From positions 32,001 to 96,000 of the IMG/VR virus record IMGVR_UViG_3300033073_001153: a stretch of DNA of 64,000 nt; one strand, given 5' to 3'. The notes below the pieces were generated by a model. The model worked only from the letters and a program-made list of their open reading frames with translations. It did no database searches and had not been told where the DNA came from. The stretch comes from a virus (lineage: Duplodnaviria > Caudoviricetes). Position 1 is the first letter of the stretch. Each line of letters opens with the position of its first letter. Below, piece by piece: positions 57,648-64,000 of this stretch. A program made the translations under genes and the position numbers.

Positions 57648-57853
57648 TAGAGGATTGTATATTAAAAAATCGCTCTTAGTAAAAATCCCCGGAAATTGCA
57701 AAAAAAATTTTGGCAATGCCCCCCTCCCCCCTCCGTCTTGCATCTTACGCATGATGCAAACTAAAATGCTCGGTGTGCATGGCACGGAACTTGTTTTCCA
57801 GAAACTTTAGCAGAAAATAAAAAAAGTTTTTTTGCTAGATGGCATGGTTCCTG

Positions 57854-57889
57854 ATACGGCACCCCCTCCCGTGAAAGGGGGTGCCGTAT
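57854..57889. terminator. Perfect 14-bp GC-rich hairpin ending the early region
   Basis: ATACGGCACCCCCT-N8-AGGGGGTGCCGTAT after the stop of ORF 57911. Confidence 0.55.
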
Positions 57890-57910
57890 TAGCGGAAGTG
57901 TCTGTAGCTA

Positions 57911-58240
57911 TTAGGGTTCGCCTAGTTCGGTAAGGATGACTCGCTTCCAAAAATCCAAAGGCAAAGTGGGTTCTGTTTTGGAAAGTATTGTTGCAAGTCT
58001 TTCGCGGATATGCAGTTCGATTCCAGTAGCGTTGTACCATACCCCGAAGCACCAAGCCATTATGCGTGGTGCTTCGGTTGTCACGGTGAGAGGAATGTTC
58101 CGTTTGTCCTCAGAGAATTTACTCAGAACTTCTCTGAGGAAGTTACGCAAGTGCCTCTCTGCTATAGTGTTTCGGTATGTCTTATTGTTTGCTGTTTGAA
58201 AGTTTGCGTACAGTAGCTGAGATAATTGTTTGATATTCAT
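57911..58240 (-). CDS. Hypothetical early protein
   Basis: ORF with C/A-rich leader and GCCGATAA upstream (58269-58276). Confidence 0.6.
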   Translation of the reverse strand: MNIKQLSQLLYANFQTANNKTYRNTIAERHLRNFLREVLSKFSEDKRNIPLTVTTEAPRIMAWCFGVWYNATGIELHIRERLATILSKTEPTLPLDFWKRVILTELGEP

Positions 58241-58472
58241 AAGGTTGTGTTGGGTAAGTGTGAATCTATTATCGGCGCGAGTTTATATTCTGACTGGAAT
58301 GTTTCCCGTAAGCATGATTGCCTAATGGCGGGACGCTAAGGGGGTTTGTGATGCCCTATGTGGGTAGGGGTGCGGTGGTGATATTGCCGGAGGGGTCGGA
58401 GCCTTTTAAGGGGCCTTTACGCGCAAAGGCGGGGAGGGGGATCGAACTCCCTCCCCGCACTACTTTCCGGTT

Positions 58473-60041
58473 TTACTTGCTTTGACCTTTCAAATACGCC
58501 GCAACGTCCTGCACCTCAACCAAATCCCGCTTGGCGCGGGTTATGGCGACGTAGATCAGATTGTTTTCCTGCACTTTCATCCATTCCTTTTTAGCCCACT
58601 TGCTAGGCATAAAGTCCTCACGTCCAAGCAGGAAGACTCTCTCCCACTCTAAGCCTTTGGACTTGTGAACAGAGCAGAGTGTCAGGAGGTCTTTACGGGT
58701 CGTTTTGTCGTCGGCATTGCTGAACATGCTGTCGATAAGGGACTTGAGGTCATCCACCCTATTCTTTCCCTCAACGTAGCACTTTTCCATGCATGCCCTA
58801 ATGCAATCGACTTTATCCTGAATTACCCCAACAAGTGCGTCGTTCCCTTTGGTTTGTGCTTTCTGAGTCTCACGGTCAAGATAGTCGCTCAGTCGGTTCT
58901 CCAACGCATCCAAGGTTTTAACCTTCCATTTGCCTATCACGTTTAGCAAACCCTGAGCAATGTCCCGTCCCTCAATCCGGCAAGGGATGCCCCTCTTGAT
59001 GAGGGAGAAAGCCGTCCGCATTAGGGGAGCATTAGTCCGACAAAGGATTGCGTCCCGATAGGAAAGATTCAGGGACTCAGGCTTTTCCGCCAAGTCACTG
59101 TAGGGAAGTTGAGTAACGCTTCCGGTCTCGGCATTCGGCGCAGCCTCAATAGTGGGATACCACGTTTGAGCGTGTTTAATCACGCTGGAACTGCACCTAT
59201 AACAAACGGAGAGAGGGAGTTCCACGGCGTTGTGAGCGGCAATGAGATTATCCAAAGCCATTGCATCCGCCCCCGTGAAACCGTAAACGGCTTGCCCCCT
59301 ATCACCCACTTTTAAATGGCGGGTATATTCGTGAGCCAGTGCCTTGCAAACCGCTTGTCTGAGAGGACTTAGGTCTTGGCATTCATCCACAATTACCCAG
59401 TCAAATTTCGGCAACTTATAGTTACGCAAAACTGTCAGGTAAACCATGTCAGAAAAGTCGATTGTCTGACTGTCCTCATTGTTCACTTTCAACGCTTTCT
59501 GAGCAATCTCAATGCACCTATCCATTGAGGCTTCCTCTTCCAACTCAACCTCATGGTGATCCATAAGTCTCTGCCATTGTGAGGACTCGGCAATGGGCCA
59601 GAAAATTCCAGCACCGTCATCTTTGGCTAGTGAAACCAGCTTACTTACTGCACCGGAGTACATTGCGAAGTCCTCTTCTGAGAGGTTATTCTCCAAAATC
59701 ATGCGAACCTTGCGGTTCTCTAACACAATCCGTTTGCCTTTGTTTGCGTTCCGATACGCCCCAAAACAAAGGGCGTGTACGGTGCTACACTCAACGGTGG
59801 TGAGTCCCTCCCGTTTCAGTTTGGAATCCATTTCCAACTGTATTTTCTTATTGAATGCCAACACGATAGCGTTCAACACAACGGACTTACCCTCTTTCGC
59901 AAGGTACTCGACCAGTGCTTTTAAGGTTTGGATAATAACGGTGCTCTTACCGCTACCCGCAACGGCGGACACAACGGCGTTGCCCTTTCCAGTGATTGCC
60001 CAGCTGAACACGGCGGACTGATATTTTGATGGAACGAACAT
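58473..60041 (-). CDS. UvrD/Rep-like SF1 helicase
   Basis: AVAGSGKST, LAFN, VDECQD, VGDRGQAVYGF.GA, YRC, HKSKGLEW, YVAITRA. Confidence 0.93.
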   Translation of the reverse strand: MFVPSKYQSAVFSWAITGKGNAVVSAVAGSGKSTVIIQTLKALVEYLAKEGKSVVLNAIVLAFNKKIQLEMDSKLKREGLTTVECSTVHALCFGAYRNANKGKRIVLENRKVRMILENNLSEEDFAMYSGAVSKLVSLAKDDGAGIFWPIAESSQWQRLMDHHEVELEEEASMDRCIEIAQKALKVNNEDSQTIDFSDMVYLTVLRNYKLPKFDWVIVDECQDLSPLRQAVCKALAHEYTRHLKVGDRGQAVYGFTGADAMALDNLIAAHNAVELPLSVCYRCSSSVIKHAQTWYPTIEAAPNAETGSVTQLPYSDLAEKPESLNLSYRDAILCRTNAPLMRTAFSLIKRGIPCRIEGRDIAQGLLNVIGKWKVKTLDALENRLSDYLDRETQKAQTKGNDALVGVIQDKVDCIRACMEKCYVEGKNRVDDLKSLIDSMFSNADDKTTRKDLLTLCSVHKSKGLEWERVFLLGREDFMPSKWAKKEWMKVQENNLIYVAITRAKRDLVEVQDVAAYLKGQSK

Positions 60042-60131
60042 ATGTTTTTTTTTCTGTTAATGTACTGAACTTCAACCCTTTACGAACTCAGTTCCCTACC
60101 TCGGGACTGCATAAAAGGCTGAAAGCAAAAC

Positions 60132-60170
60132 ACTAAAAACCACGCCCCCTACACCGTATTGTGTAGGGGG
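60132..60170 (-). repeat. Repeated hairpin/terminator, copy 1
   Basis: 39-nt near-exact repeat of 60500-60538; CCCCCTACAC stem. Confidence 0.75.
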
Positions 60171-60182
60171 AGTTTATGTGAT

Positions 60183-60434
60183 TTATTCAAGTGGGGAAGG
60201 ATAACCCGCTTCAACCATAAGCGGATTCCATTTATTGTACACCCTTGCTTCTAAGGGCGTACAATTGACCGTAATATCAGTATTCATCCCACTCGCTTGT
60301 TGGCGAGTGGTAATTTGTATCTCCCCCTCTGCGCGTTCCTGAGGGGTACAATCTCCCCAAACTGCCGGAATCCACATTTTGATTTTATTTTGGAATGCGT
60401 ATTCAACAGCATTTAGATTTAGATGATTCGACAT
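60183..60434 (-). CDS. Hypothetical early protein
   Basis: ORF flanked by conserved leader and hairpin. Confidence 0.6.
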   Translation of the reverse strand: MSNHLNLNAVEYAFQNKIKMWIPAVWGDCTPQERAEGEIQITTRQQASGMNTDITVNCTPLEARVYNKWNPLMVEAGYPSPLE

Positions 60435-60499
60435 AATTTTTGTTTTCTTTTTAGAATCTGATTGCCAACGCTTTAACCATTAAAACGCTGGCGACAAAT

Positions 60500-60538
60500 A
60501 CTAAAAACCACGCCCCCTACACCGGATTGTGTAGGGGG
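60500..60538 (-). repeat. Repeated hairpin/terminator, copy 2
   Basis: See copy 1; related third copy at 61993-62024. Confidence 0.75.
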
Positions 60539-60550
60539 TTGAATTGGAGA

Positions 60551-60898
60551 TTAGCAGACCATCTCGTCTTGTCTCCGGACTTCTCTAAGTCCCCGTTCCA
60601 TGAGGTTCTCAGCGAGGAACTTCCGGAACTGAGCATCAGTGATTTCCTGAGTGTTCGTCCAGAGACCGATTCTGCGTTTAATGTCTGCCAGCGAGACCAT
60701 TCCGGAGTCCGGAGTCCCGCGCAAACGGTGAACTGCGAAGTACCTCTGAGCGTACTGTTTCCAGTTTTTTTCAGTGATTGAACGCAACTGAACATCAATG
60801 GAATTCCAGATAAGGTGCTCAGTCTTAGACCACTCTGCATTATCGGAGTGGAGTTCCTTCCAGTTTGCGACTTTGCCGAATTCGAAGTTGAGTGACAT
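60551..60898 (-). CDS. Hypothetical early protein
   Basis: MSLNF...ITEKN...RRIGLWTN; A-rich leader. Confidence 0.7.
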   Translation of the reverse strand: MSLNFEFGKVANWKELHSDNAEWSKTEHLIWNSIDVQLRSITEKNWKQYAQRYFAVHRLRGTPDSGMVSLADIKRRIGLWTNTQEITDAQFRKFLAENLMERGLREVRRQDEMVC

Positions 60899-60979
60899 AT
60901 CTTTTTTATTTTGTAGGATTTGGGTTTCAACGCTCCGGTCTCGGCATCCCTACTTCGGGGCCGCGAAACGCTGAGGACA

Positions 60980-61366
60980 AACCCTAGTGCTAGGAAACTT
61001 AACCTAGCGGATTGTCTTTAAGCTACTTACGAAAATGTAAGTGGAGACCGGAAACGCAAGTGCCGTTAGCACCGGAACCGTCCCGAGTTCTTGACCATAC
61101 AAGGCAATCCCTTCCGCAATGGATACTTTGATCCGAATTGGAAAGGCAACGCTGACTAACTCCTTAAAAGTCAGCATTCTATGGCACATATCATTCCTCT
61201 GTTAAAGGTGTAGGCAAATGTGCAGCCCCCAGTTTTCCGTTACGGTCGTCTGGTGACCGGAGCCGCTAGCCCTGACTCAGGGGTCCGGTTGCCACCGGAA
61301 AACGCTTGTCGCACGTCCTACGCTGGGGAGACCTCCCAGAACCCAGACCAGCGGAACTCGCTGGCC
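60980..61366 (-). ncRNA. Candidate large structured RNA/leader
   Basis: Many short hairpins, no convincing ORF, sigma28-like promoter at 61374-61400. Confidence 0.5.
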
Positions 61367-61373
61367 TACCCTG

Positions 61374-61400
61374 TATTCGGCATCCTACAGAATCCCTTAA
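61374..61400 (-). promoter_or_regulatory. Sigma28-like promoter
   Basis: TTAA-N15-GCCGAATA. Confidence 0.55.
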
Positions 61401-61683
61401 ATGATTTTTTTATCATTTTTGTAAGTGCCTTTCTTTCGAAAGTTTACAAAGCAAAAAGATTTTCAAAGCCCTCTTCCGGTAGGGTCTTAAATAGTACCGG
61501 AGAGACTCACCGGAAACGCCCCGTAATTGAGCGGAAACGGCAATCCTAGGCCCGTTCGCTCGCCGGTAAGGTGAGTATAGCGGACAACCTAGAAACCCCC
61601 CTAGAATCGCCTTTAAACGCAAAAGTCTTGTAAGTGTCTATATTCTCGATACTTACGAAAGATAAAAAAAGTTTCGGATAGGC

Positions 61684-61885
61684 TTGACAAGGTAGGGTAG
61701 TGCCAGACTAACCTATCGGCGGGGGGAGGGTCTGTCTGGGTACTTTTTCTATGTAAAAACAGGGGTTGACAAAGTAAACAATTCTTTATTAACCTATCGG
61801 CGGGGGGAGGGTCTAAGGTTTCCCTAGCATCGCAAAAAGGGGGCTTGACAAGTGTGGTAGACTAAGAGGGAGGGGGGAGGGAGAA
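61684..61885. repeat. Three ~80-bp units with TTGACA and G-tracts
   Basis: Exact 25-nt repeat TAACCTATCGGCGGGGGGAGGGTCT at 61709 and 61790; TTGACA at 61684, 61766, 61845. Confidence 0.75.
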
Positions 61886-62041
61886 GGGTTTTTATTTATA
61901 TTCTATAAGTTATGCTTATAGAGCATAATGAATATAAGGTATGCTTATAGAGTATAATGAATGTTCTGTATGTTCCATGTGGAACAAAAGAGAACCCCCT
62001 ACACTCCGTAGAATGTAGGGGGTTGGGGGAACCGGACTCTG

Positions 62042-62338
62042 TTACTTGTCCAGAGCCACAAAGATGTTCCGGTCTTGTAGGGTTCGGATTTTTTCGAAAA
62101 GGCTTTCGATTTCTGGTGCTGCCATGTTCCAACTTTCTTCTTGGAGAATGTTCCGTATAGCCTTTTTGAATTCATCTGGATGAAAGTATGTTCCTTTCAT
62201 AACGCCTCCAAATGTGTATTCGCAATACTCATTGAATACGTCATCAAGACGAACTCCATCAGCACATTTGATAGTGCAGGGAATGAGAGAAGAAAAAGGA
62301 TAGAAGGTCATAGACTGGACGAGGTTTTCTTGGATCAT
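62042..62338 (-). CDS. Hypothetical early protein
   Basis: Own promoter and downstream hairpin. Confidence 0.65.
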   Translation of the reverse strand: MIQENLVQSMTFYPFSSLIPCTIKCADGVRLDDVFNEYCEYTFGGVMKGTYFHPDEFKKAIRNILQEESWNMAAPEIESLFEKIRTLQDRNIFVALDK

Positions 62339-62373
62339 AATGTTAGGAGTTGAGGTTTACGCTGACACTATCT

Positions 62374-62402
62374 TTATCGGCAGAGTGTAGGGAATACTTT
62401 AG
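62374..62402 (-). promoter_or_regulatory. Sigma28-like promoter
   Basis: CTAAAG...GCCGATAA (TAAA-N16-GCCGATAA). Confidence 0.65.
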
Positions 62403-62556
62403 AACTTTTTTGTGTTTTTGTGCGCTGAGTTTGTGGGTAGGAGTCCTACGTTTTTGGGAGCGAGCGGGACTTTTTTGTTTGACTCGTGACTTTGTGATAA
62501 AAAAACGAATATGTTATAAATTCATTTTTAATAGAGGAATGAAAAAAGTATTGAAG

Positions 62557-62781
62557 TTATGAGCATGATGTGAATTCCACCTTTGCCTCGAAGCATTCTA
62601 TGTCTCTCCAGTCTTCCTCTTTTATGTCTAGAGGATCGCCTACTAATTCAGCCAGAGACTCTCCGGTTGTGTAGGTCTTTACGAGTCTCCAGACGGTGTT
62701 TGTGGAGGGGTGAAAAGAGAATCCTCTTTTCGTAAAATACGAAGAGGGCTTGACAATTTGTGTGATGTACTTCTCTTTCAT
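62557..62781 (-). CDS. Hypothetical early protein
   Basis: ORF directly after a hairpin and T-tract. Confidence 0.5.
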   Translation of the reverse strand: MKEKYITQIVKPSSYFTKRGFSFHPSTNTVWRLVKTYTTGESLAELVGDPLDIKEEDWRDIECFEAKVEFTSCS

Positions 62782-62829
62782 AAAAAAAGGAACACAAGGT
62801 ACGGTCGGGGGTTGCCGTACCTTGTGTTT
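62782..62829 (-). terminator. Rho-independent terminator
   Basis: AACACAAGGTACGG...CCGTACCTTGTGTT followed by CC-T7. Confidence 0.7.
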
Positions 62830-62841
62830 GTGGGGGAGAGG

Positions 62842-63270
62842 TTAGACCGTTTCCAGATCCATGTTGAGGATCAGATTCGAAGCGGTGAAGGCGGCGGTGT
62901 CCCGCTCCTCTTCGGATTCGGCGGAAGTGAACTTTTCCAGAACTTCCTTGAGGAAATTGTAGTCCTCATTTTCAGAAGTCGGCGCATTTTCGTTCACCTC
63001 GAATTCGGTAAACTCCACTTCGTTCAGGATGTCTTCCGATACCACTTCTGATGCCACTTCTCCTTCGAGAGGGGCAAATGTGCTCTCCAGCTCCGCGACT
63101 AACTTAGACAGGTTGTTGCGGAGCGTCAGGTGATTCCCGACGTGCTTCACCGGAACGCATCCGGCCTTGAGGAGGTTGAACGTGTGCTTCTTTGACTCCT
63201 TTTCATAGGAGGAAACGATTTGAATGTCGCCAATGGAGAGAGTGCCGTTTTCGTTTTTGGTGATGCTCAT
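62842..63270 (-). CDS. Acidic hypothetical early protein
   Basis: Preceded by the promoter/T-loop hairpin cassette. Confidence 0.7.
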   Translation of the reverse strand: MSITKNENGTLSIGDIQIVSSYEKESKKHTFNLLKAGCVPVKHVGNHLTLRNNLSKLVAELESTFAPLEGEVASEVVSEDILNEVEFTEFEVNENAPTSENEDYNFLKEVLEKFTSAESEEERDTAAFTASNLILNMDLETV

Positions 63271-63299
63271 ATGATTTTTTGTTTTTGGGTTTCTGAGTT

Positions 63300-63364
63300 G
63301 TGAACCGGAAGGGATCGAACCTTCCGGTATTATTGTAGTCGGCAGAGTGTAGAGGATTCTTTAG
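63300..63364 (-). promoter_or_regulatory. Sigma28-like promoter plus T-loop hairpin cassette 1
   Basis: CTAAAG..GCCGACTA-N7-ACCGGAAGG-TTCGATC-CCTTCCGGT-TCAC. Confidence 0.7.
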
Positions 63365-63371
63365 AATTTTT

Positions 63372-63668
63372 TTAGACTAGTTCTGCTTCTTCCTCTGATT
63401 CTTCGTAGTAGTGTTTGGCAATTTCTTCGAAGTCAACCTCATTCAAGTACTCGTCAACAATTTCACGAACGAAGCCACTTGCCTTGAGGTTGTCAAGCTC
63501 AAGCTCAAAAACAACGTTCTCGAATGCTTCTGCCATGTGTTTGACGCTGTTAAACACTATTCCGTGTTTTTTCTCTTCGGCCATGCTGTGGAAAATTTCT
63601 TCGAATCGGGAATAGATTACCCACGTTTGTTTGTTCGACCATCCGTTGTATGTAGTAGGAGCGTTCAT
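63372..63668 (-). CDS. Acidic hypothetical early protein
   Basis: YNGWSN..TW and V(D/N)F.EIA motifs common in phage early proteins. Confidence 0.7.
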   Translation of the reverse strand: MNAPTTYNGWSNKQTWVIYSRFEEIFHSMAEEKKHGIVFNSVKHMAEAFENVVFELELDNLKASGFVREIVDEYLNEVDFEEIAKHYYEESEEEAELV

Positions 63669-63691
63669 GTTATTTTTGGTTTGGGGTTCCG

Positions 63692-63756
63692 GTGAACCGG
63701 AAGGGATCGAACCTTCCGGTATTATTGTAGTCGGTTGTTTCTCGGCGGGACTTTAG
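63692..63756 (-). promoter_or_regulatory. Sigma28-like promoter plus T-loop hairpin cassette 2
   Basis: CTAAAG..ACCGACTA-N7-identical hairpin. Confidence 0.7.
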
Positions 63757-63911
63757 AACTTTTTTGTAGAACCTGACATTTCCAGAAGAACTAGTGCCAA
63801 TCGCTCGGCAATTTGTTTCTTGACTTCATCAGTGATTCCTTCCTCAAGCGATACGCCTAATGCCCGTGCCATATCGACAACTTGCTCTTCAGTGAATTTT
63901 TCGGTTTCCAT
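63753..63911 (-). CDS. 52-aa hypothetical early protein (not in ORF track)
   Basis: METEKFTEEQVVDMARALGVSLEEGITDEVKKQIAERLALVLLEMSGSTKKF, between two cassettes. Confidence 0.65.
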   Translation of the reverse strand: METEKFTEEQVVDMARALGVSLEEGITDEVKKQIAERLALVLLEMSGSTKKF

Positions 63912-63932
63912 AATGTTCTAAGGTTTCTGAGT

Positions 63933-63996
63933 GTGAACCGGAAGGGATCGAACCTTCCGGTATTATACTAATCGGTCAGGAATACTTTTTCTTTAG
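63933..63996 (-). promoter_or_regulatory. Sigma28-like promoter plus T-loop hairpin cassette 3
   Basis: CTAAAG..ACCGATTA (N15 spacer)-N7-identical hairpin. Confidence 0.7.
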
Positions 63997-64000
63997 CGGT

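Follow-up and report, generated by a model that had tools for sequence, protein, structure and literature searches.

The question raised by this locus is whether a stretch of phage DNA without genes, lying at the head of a helicase operon, encodes a structured RNA, and how such an RNA might act. The window, i.e., the whole 64-kb stretch of DNA that was analysed, corresponds to bases 32001-96000 of a 242,607-bp virus record; positions given below are those of the window unless genome coordinates are named. The 242.6-kb genome is considered T4-like because a Gp23-type capsid gene is present. Its GC content is about 30%, with the exception of a block of 43-55% GC at about 57.7-64.5 kb of the window, in which every gene lies on the minus strand. 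Repeated punctuation marks this block: it contains sigma28-like boxes, 5' hairpins of T-arm-like form, and GC-rich hairpins with a U-run after them. The jump in GC content from about 30% to 43-55% is abrupt (window 57700-64000, genome about 89.7-97 kb), and transcription is convergent at the left edge of the block, around 57.7-57.9 kb.

A preliminary description of this DNA had proposed a large phage non-coding RNA on the minus strand. The proposal was upheld by synteny in at least 11 phage lineages, strand-specific covariation, the lack of a conserved ORF and a conserved promoter-like box, and we are nearly certain that 61368-60986 (minus strand) is a genuine conserved structured RNA. It lies directly behind a sigma28-like box and heads a transcription unit whose last gene is a UvrD-like helicase. 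The body of the long form, delimited by the alignment of eight homologues, measures about 385 nt (60986-61368, minus strand, 52% GC) and is single-copy in the phage genome.

The ORF-free gap that holds the RNA is wider than first reported and extends over 60898-62042. No ORF longer than 78 aa was found in it with code 11, code 4 or TAG=Q, which agrees with the earlier statement that no credible ORF precedes the ATG at 60898; the alternative genetic codes, considered as an explanation of the gap, open no frame and were dropped. On the upstream side, a 98-aa gene stops at 62042 and has its own terminator at 61993-62024. Conservation of the 61-aa ORF at 61004-61189 (minus strand) had been named beforehand as an observation that would speak against an RNA. 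This ORF is no gene, since its start codon is lost in five of seven relatives and its frame is broken by stops or frameshifts in all seven; in L010 and L110, a 15-nt deletion takes out the ATG. Nor did the homologue alignment reveal a start codon followed by a short conserved frame anywhere in the RNA.

The novelty claimed for the RNA was borne out by searches against Rfam 15. At the gathering threshold, no match was obtained in the whole 64-kb window; none overlapping the RNA was found at E up to 10 in 60400-62200, or at E up to 1 in the homologues L108, L109 and L110. The families covered included GOLLD, ROOL, OLE, HEARO, raiA, RNase P and tmRNA, as well as 6S, SRP, group I/II introns, EAR and riboswitches. 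ARAGORN called no tRNA or tmRNA gene in the whole window. The earlier observation that hallmarks of tRNA, tmRNA, RNase P and introns are lacking was thus confirmed by both tools. An RNase P-like reading of GGAAAACUGGGGGCU with AGUAGCUU was dropped because it matches no model. A group I intron was likewise rejected: no model matches, the upstream gene has its own stop and terminator, and the downstream ORF has its own ATG.

Relatives were collected with the helicase as synteny anchor. This UvrD-like SF1 helicase (58473-60041, minus strand; Pfam PF00580 at 4e-20) is the distal gene of the operon, and its relatives range from 92% identity downward, many of them on contigs of 208-255 kb. Where the helicase is 68-85% identical, the gene order is the same, with about 1 kb free of genes ahead of the helicase operon. 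Ten homologous RNA loci were found in related metagenomic phage contigs, each in the gene-free gap upstream of a UvrD-like helicase. The first ORF of the operon (60551-60898, minus strand) encodes 115 aa without known family, and only 14 relatives of it were found; three of the ten loci were reached through relatives of this ORF. Searches for related loci with the 115-aa and 98-aa neighbours as queries gave nothing useful, and blastn against 50,697 phage records returned no match. In IMG/VR, the helicase alone retrieved relatives at only 29% identity; the helicase alignment there comprised 80 loci with one close relative, and nhmmer detected the RNA in none of the distant ones. Pattern scans included, the RNA occurs in IMG/VR only in the genome of the window and in one relative. 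The matches of the metagenome pattern scan were secG genes only, i.e., false positives, and five matches in high-GC bacterial genome contigs, without further similarity, were attributed to chance. The RNA belongs to a family not described before, which is so far restricted to one clade of uncultured T4-like jumbo phages.

Three states of the locus are found among the relatives. The long form is present in eight loci, window included, with DNA identities to the RNA of the window of 63-82%. A short form of about 200 nt is found in three relatives (L008, L108 and L016), and in L014 the RNA is absent, with the same promoter box directly before an ORF and a hairpin-punctuated helicase operon. The gene that follows varies independently of the form. 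In L008 and L017, the place of the first ORF is occupied by a 110-aa gene unrelated to the 115-aa ORF. The long form precedes the 115-aa gene in the window and in L006, L010, L012, L015, L109 and L110, and the 110-aa gene in L017; the short form precedes the 110-aa gene in L008, the 115-aa gene in L108 and the helicase itself in L016. The three states (long, short and absent), together with two unrelated first ORFs, indicate an accessory, modular "RNA gene" of an early-type block. ART-PolyVal (ADP-ribosyltransferase-like) genes lie near the helicase in L010 and L015.

The fold of the long form was obtained with RNAalifold from eight sequences (window, L006, L012, L015, L010, L017, L110 and L109), which gave a consensus of 103 pairs in 19 helices. 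In this fold, 93.8% of the cells are paired, compared with 35-48% when the partners are slid by 1-3 columns; the number of double-change pairs is 40 versus 4-13 with slid partners, and the covariation score is 0.349 versus 0.07-0.11. The same holds for the short form, with 54 pairs in three sequences, 95.1% of cells paired (30-49% slid) and 12 double-change pairs (0-1 slid). None of 500 shuffles matched any observed measure of the long form, a statistic that is inflated by the kinship of the sequences (11 in all, from one narrow phage clade). Since the slid-partner control is not affected by kinship, it is decisive for the covariation claim. Pairing on the minus strand reaches 93.8% of cells against 84.6% on the opposite strand, and G-U pairs account for 90 of the paired cells. 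Hence, it is the minus-strand transcript that is structured, and not the DNA. As for folding relative to shuffled controls, the MFE fold of 60930-61400 was better than most of them, but only modestly (z = -2.24, with 2 of 100 shuffles equally good). A single sequence is thus insufficient for the claim, which is carried by the comparative evidence.

The transcript would begin at about 61368, as predicted from the promoter-like box, a few nucleotides ahead of the 5'-terminal hairpin P1 at 61346-61366 (GGCCAGCG/CGCTGGTC, also written GGCCAGCG/CGCUGGUC; all elements of the RNA are on the minus strand). P1 is kept by compensatory changes, with a C-G pair turned into U-A in L017 and the entire stem exchanged compensatorily in L016; at the same position, L006, L012, L015, L109 and L110 have two different hairpins. 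Helices 2-4 follow at 61284-61339 (CUGGG/CCCAG; CGY/RCG crossing GGACG/CGUUU; UCCGG/CCGGA). Helix 2, CTGGG/CCCAG at 61339-61323, is 100% paired with one double change, pair 84:94 of helix 3 is CG, UA or UG across all eight sequences, and helix 4, CCGG/CCGG at 61299-61284, contains two double-change pairs. The crossing of CGY/RCG with GGACG/CGUUU may form an H-type pseudoknot. In the eight-sequence alignment, the invariant CCCCUGAGUCAGGGCUAG and helices 6-9 occupy 61212-61282. The local hairpin CCCTG/CAGGG (61282-61270) is present and invariant across relatives, hence without covariation.

A long-range pairing between CCUGAG (61281-61276) and CUCGGG (61087-61082), to which this local hairpin is an alternative, is kept in 6 of 6 pairs, with one-sided changes that preserve it (UG to UA in L006, UG to CG in L110). 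A second candidate 5' strand competes for CUCGGG, and column 181 has a local and a long-range partner in the eight sequences; because of this competition, the global architecture of the long form is unsettled. Helices 10-13, at 61090-61178, make up a domain without counterpart in the short form. Helix 10 (GCTGAC/GTCAGC, 61178-61148, with loop UAAGGAGUUAG) has five double-change pairs, helix 11 (61146-61109) four, helix 12 (61134-61121) three and helix 13 one. The core common to both forms lies at 61020-61087 and consists of CUCGGGACGGUUCCGG (61087-61072), two hairpins and AGUAGCUU (61027-61020). Its first hairpin, GGTGCT/GGCACT at 61073-61059 (GGUGCU/GGCACU in the RNA), is kept by compensatory changes, and the second, helix 16, CTTAC/GTAAG at 61042-61025 (CUUAC/GUAAG), shows five double-change pairs. 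The motif GGACGGTTCCGGT is invariant in seven of the eight long forms and occurs also in L008.

The 3' end of the body, at 60986-61010, is a hairpin region of variable length. In the window, it forms GCTAGG/CCTAGC (61008-60989; GCUAGG/CCUAGC in the RNA); a deletion removes it in L006 and L017, and L012, L015, L109 and L010 have other hairpins in its place. The dense local hairpins reported at first were all recovered, most of them kept by compensatory changes in relatives. The long-range complementarities proposed earlier, GGGGGCTG/CGGTCTCC and TTTTCCG/CGGAAAA, are not conserved, with 3-7 of 8 and 3-5 of 7 pairs, respectively, formed in relatives.

The short form comprises six helices, i.e., hairpins P1-P3 and a three-way junction. 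In its P5, the invariant GGGACgGUUCC is the 3' strand, and four pairs show double changes. Comparison of the two forms suggests that the long one differs from the short one by an insertion of about 130 nt (helices 10-13) into the P5 loop, following AUAGAAU, and by one added hairpin.

The promoter-like box was read on the minus strand at 61374-61400 as TTAA-N15-GCCGAATA, with TTAA at 61400-61397, 15 nt, and GCCGAATA at 61381-61374. Relative to the sigma28-type sequence TAAA-N15-GCCGATAA, it differs at one position of the -35 element and at two neighbouring positions of the -10 element (an A/T swap). It is kept as TTAAGrGATT..GCCkAnnn in L006, L017, L108 and L008, and L014 has CTTAAGG-N13-GCCGATAT, so that the box was seen in five relatives overall. 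The strict motif TAAA-N14-17-RCCGAYWA matches four times in the window against 0.42 expected. Over the whole genome, it matches 13 times, always on the minus strand and within 23.5 kb (genome 94.4-117.9 kb), with none elsewhere; the part of the cluster that falls in the window spans 62374-63995, and the cluster continues to genome 117.9 kb. The box of the RNA is a near variant of the strict motif at the downstream end of this cluster. Boxes of this sigma28-like kind form a real and conserved class of motif, and the one ahead of the RNA is a putative sigma28-type promoter on the minus strand. No FliA-like sigma gene was seen in the phage, in which only two short Sigma70_r2 ORFs were noted. The strict sigma28-type motif has no copy in the stretch from the RNA promoter (61374-61400) to the helicase; among the sites listed by a simple sigma70-type scan, the only minus-strand one in this stretch lies inside the RNA (61205-61176). 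In L016, two strong sigma70-type promoters (TTGACA-N17/18-TACACT; L016:4290-4520) are located upstream of the short-form RNA, both bracketed by GGGAGGGA/TCCCTCCC inverted repeats, a class not seen here in the window.

Several other elements were noted upstream of the RNA. A second conserved non-coding block, at 61441-61736 (minus strand) and also 61790-61814, lies upstream of the RNA promoter in 10 of 10 relatives. It contains an invariant 25-mer, AGACCCTCCCCCCRCCGATAGGTTA, with two copies in the window and a third at genome 97282, a hairpin UAAGU..ACUUA, the invariant GATTCTAGGGGGGTTTCT (61608-61591), a CCGG-rich domain with one covarying helix, and a T-run. This block could be a second RNA or promoter/operator DNA. 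Just past the terminator of the 98-aa gene, at 61904-61961, two tandem 29-nt AT-rich units with a palindrome-like CTATAAGCATA..TATGCTTATAG have an operator-like look and are kept in L006, L008, L017 and L108. Farther upstream, three near-identical hairpins (63299-63342, 63691-63734 and 63932-63975) resemble a tRNA T-arm on the minus strand (GGAAGG-UUCGAUC-CCUUCC); each of them directly follows a sigma28-like box, and ARAGORN calls no tRNA there.

Downstream, the RNA is followed by a leader hairpin module of about 23 bp at 60915-60985 (minus strand), imperfect and with a GARGUA-type loop, which comprises helices 17-19 and ten double-change pairs. An A-rich spacer after this module leads to the ATG of the 115-aa ORF at 60898, and no U-tract terminator was found in the sequence read between the RNA and this ATG. 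The hairpin recurs at 60441-60506 and 60043-60131, ahead of the next two ORFs, and also precedes the helicase in L010, L012 and L015. Each downstream copy is preceded by a GC-rich hairpin, CCCCCUACAC..GUGUAGGGGG, which at 60513-60538 (minus strand) is followed by CGUGGUUUUU and looks like a terminator; its second copy is at 60145-60170. The U-run of these intercistronic hairpins begins 5 nt past the stem, and they may be weak terminators or processing/stability hairpins. The leader module has the form of an RNase III-type site, with 23 bp (about two turns) and internal loops, located between cistrons. Its copies (60043-60131, 60441-60506 and 60915-60985) are candidate processing sites. As to translation, a Shine-Dalgarno-like motif precedes only 11 of 164 long ORFs of the whole phage genome. 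TAAATA boxes lie very near many start codons throughout the genome, which, with the scarcity of Shine-Dalgarno motifs, suggests late mRNAs with short leaders and a host that does not rely on Shine-Dalgarno pairing.

For the action of the RNA, we give an even chance to its working in trans after release at the leader hairpin rather than as a cis regulator. According to this model, one transcript would comprise the RNA and the helicase operon, and cleavage at the imperfect hairpin ahead of each ORF (about 23 bp) would set the RNA free. Released and compactly folded, it would work in trans during host take-over. It could serve a host factor as decoy or scaffold, or it could be catalytic or self-assembling, in the manner of other large ornate phage RNAs. 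An autonomous accessory product is favoured over an obligatory cis element because the RNA persists when the first ORF is swapped between two unrelated families, because the long and short forms combine with either ORF or directly with the helicase, and because L014 runs the same promoter and operon without the RNA. On the other hand, the constant place at the head of the helicase operon also fits a cis role, and since no terminator ends the RNA, it could be a plain 5' UTR. More tentatively, the RNA may belong to a new class of large phage RNAs that are active by themselves: a ribozyme, an RNA-only particle of the ROOL/GOLLD kind, or a captor of a host machine. With the same reserve, the machine captured might be the polymerase, the ribosome or a defence nuclease, by an RNA made in the first minutes of infection.

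The cis alternative, the main rival though rather unlikely as it stands, is that the nascent RNA modifies the polymerase, as in antitermination of the HK022 put/EAR type, or otherwise controls read-through of the operon. It draws on the position of the RNA between its promoter and the two GC-rich hairpin and U-run elements (60513-60538 and 60145-60170), on the lack, before the helicase, of a strict sigma28-type match and of any listed minus-strand sigma70-type site but the one within the RNA, and on the constant association with the helicase operon whichever first ORF follows; put RNAs are likewise placed after early promoters (PMC9378689). However, L014 combines the same promoter and a punctuated helicase operon with no RNA, the RNA exceeds put and EAR 3-6 times in size and by far in complexity, the elements to be read through may be weak terminators or processing/stability hairpins, given U-runs that begin 5 nt past their stems, and there is no Rfam match to EAR or to any cis-regulatory family. 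The put-like antiterminator of the preliminary description thus fails as a family assignment, on size and number of helices, and persists as a possible function, weakened by L014 and by the displaced U-runs.

Still less probable is a 5' UTR with a role in the stability of the mRNA or in translational control of the first ORF, either as a block to 5' decay or as a riboswitch-like sensor. Transcripts from promoters of the same class do start with a stable hairpin near the predicted start (the T-arm-like hairpins at 63299-63975), leader structure could matter for initiation in a phage nearly without Shine-Dalgarno motifs (11/164), and the two alternative partners of CUCGGG hint at a switch. But the RNA is kept though the first ORF differs between relatives, neighbouring genes manage with simple hairpins, 385 nt with many conserved loops exceed the needs of stabilisation, and no riboswitch family is matched. 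The view that there is no RNA gene at all, and that the region is decayed coding sequence, a DNA element (an origin or a protein-binding array) or the remnant of a self-splicing intron, is highly improbable and was largely refuted. Replication origins of T4 are transcribed regions, and here a helicase is nearby and the region holds the 61-aa ORF. This ORF, however, is destroyed in every relative, compensatory changes keep G-U pairs on one strand only, and neither a group I/II match at E up to 10 nor a split exon context was found.

Conserved RNAs of several hundred nucleotides that are so dense in covarying helices are rare, and often they are ribozymes, RNP scaffolds or, as recognised recently, RNA-only cages. 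An RNA that lies in a host-take-over block and behaves as a shuffled accessory gene is a candidate for RNA-based host manipulation. In addition, the long, short and absent variants are natural deletions and provide a ready design for structure-function work; if the RNA does have its own activity, the 200-nt core and the 385-nt expanded version would define its functional minimum. For these genomes, it also follows that the "gene-free" kilobase left by gene callers is functional sequence.

Compared with known systems, the 3' module recalls the early region of T7, in which RNase III processing hairpins lie between cistrons. The likeness consists in the recurrence, within an early polycistronic unit, of an imperfect hairpin that is long (about 23 bp) and interrupted by internal loops; it is confined to 60915-60985 and does not extend to the RNA body, and there is no sequence similarity.

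Among antitermination RNAs, EAR measures about 120 nt, and put suppresses termination in cis and binds the zinc-binding domain of the polymerase beta' subunit. With put RNA and EAR, the RNA shares its place: an early-type promoter closely precedes it and genes punctuated by hairpins follow, with the box at 61374-61400 and a hairpin and U-run at both 60513-60538 and 60145-60170. HK022 put RNA is about 70 nt long, with two stem-loops, and is found just after early promoters (PMC9378689). In contrast, the RNA described here has at least 16 helices in the long form and six in the short one, without sequence or model similarity to put, and the operon of L014 exists without it.

A closer parallel in scale is given by GOLLD and ROOL. 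The ROOL member studied has 659 nt, many GOLLD RNAs exceed 800 nt, and both are usually near tRNA islands (PMC12286853). Like them, the present RNA is phage-encoded, several hundred nucleotides long and rich in covarying helices, with no ORF, a function that is not known and a domain content that varies among members. It fits, in size and complexity, the class of large phage RNAs without known function (PMC12286853). It is nevertheless smaller (385 or 200 nt), gives no match to their covariance models, lies away from any tRNA island, as no tRNA occurs in the window, and heads a protein-coding operon behind a promoter, whereas GOLLD and ROOL are free-standing genes.

The setting as a whole resembles the hyperplastic early regions of T4-like phages, such as the dda/modA neighbourhood, which contain many small, individually promoted and shuffled accessory genes. 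Here too, a block of small shuffled genes is found beside an SF1 helicase and ADP-ribosyltransferase-like genes. It differs in that its promoters are sigma28-like and not sigma70-like, that the block is 15-20% GC-richer than the genome, and that its shuffled "genes" include a large structured RNA.
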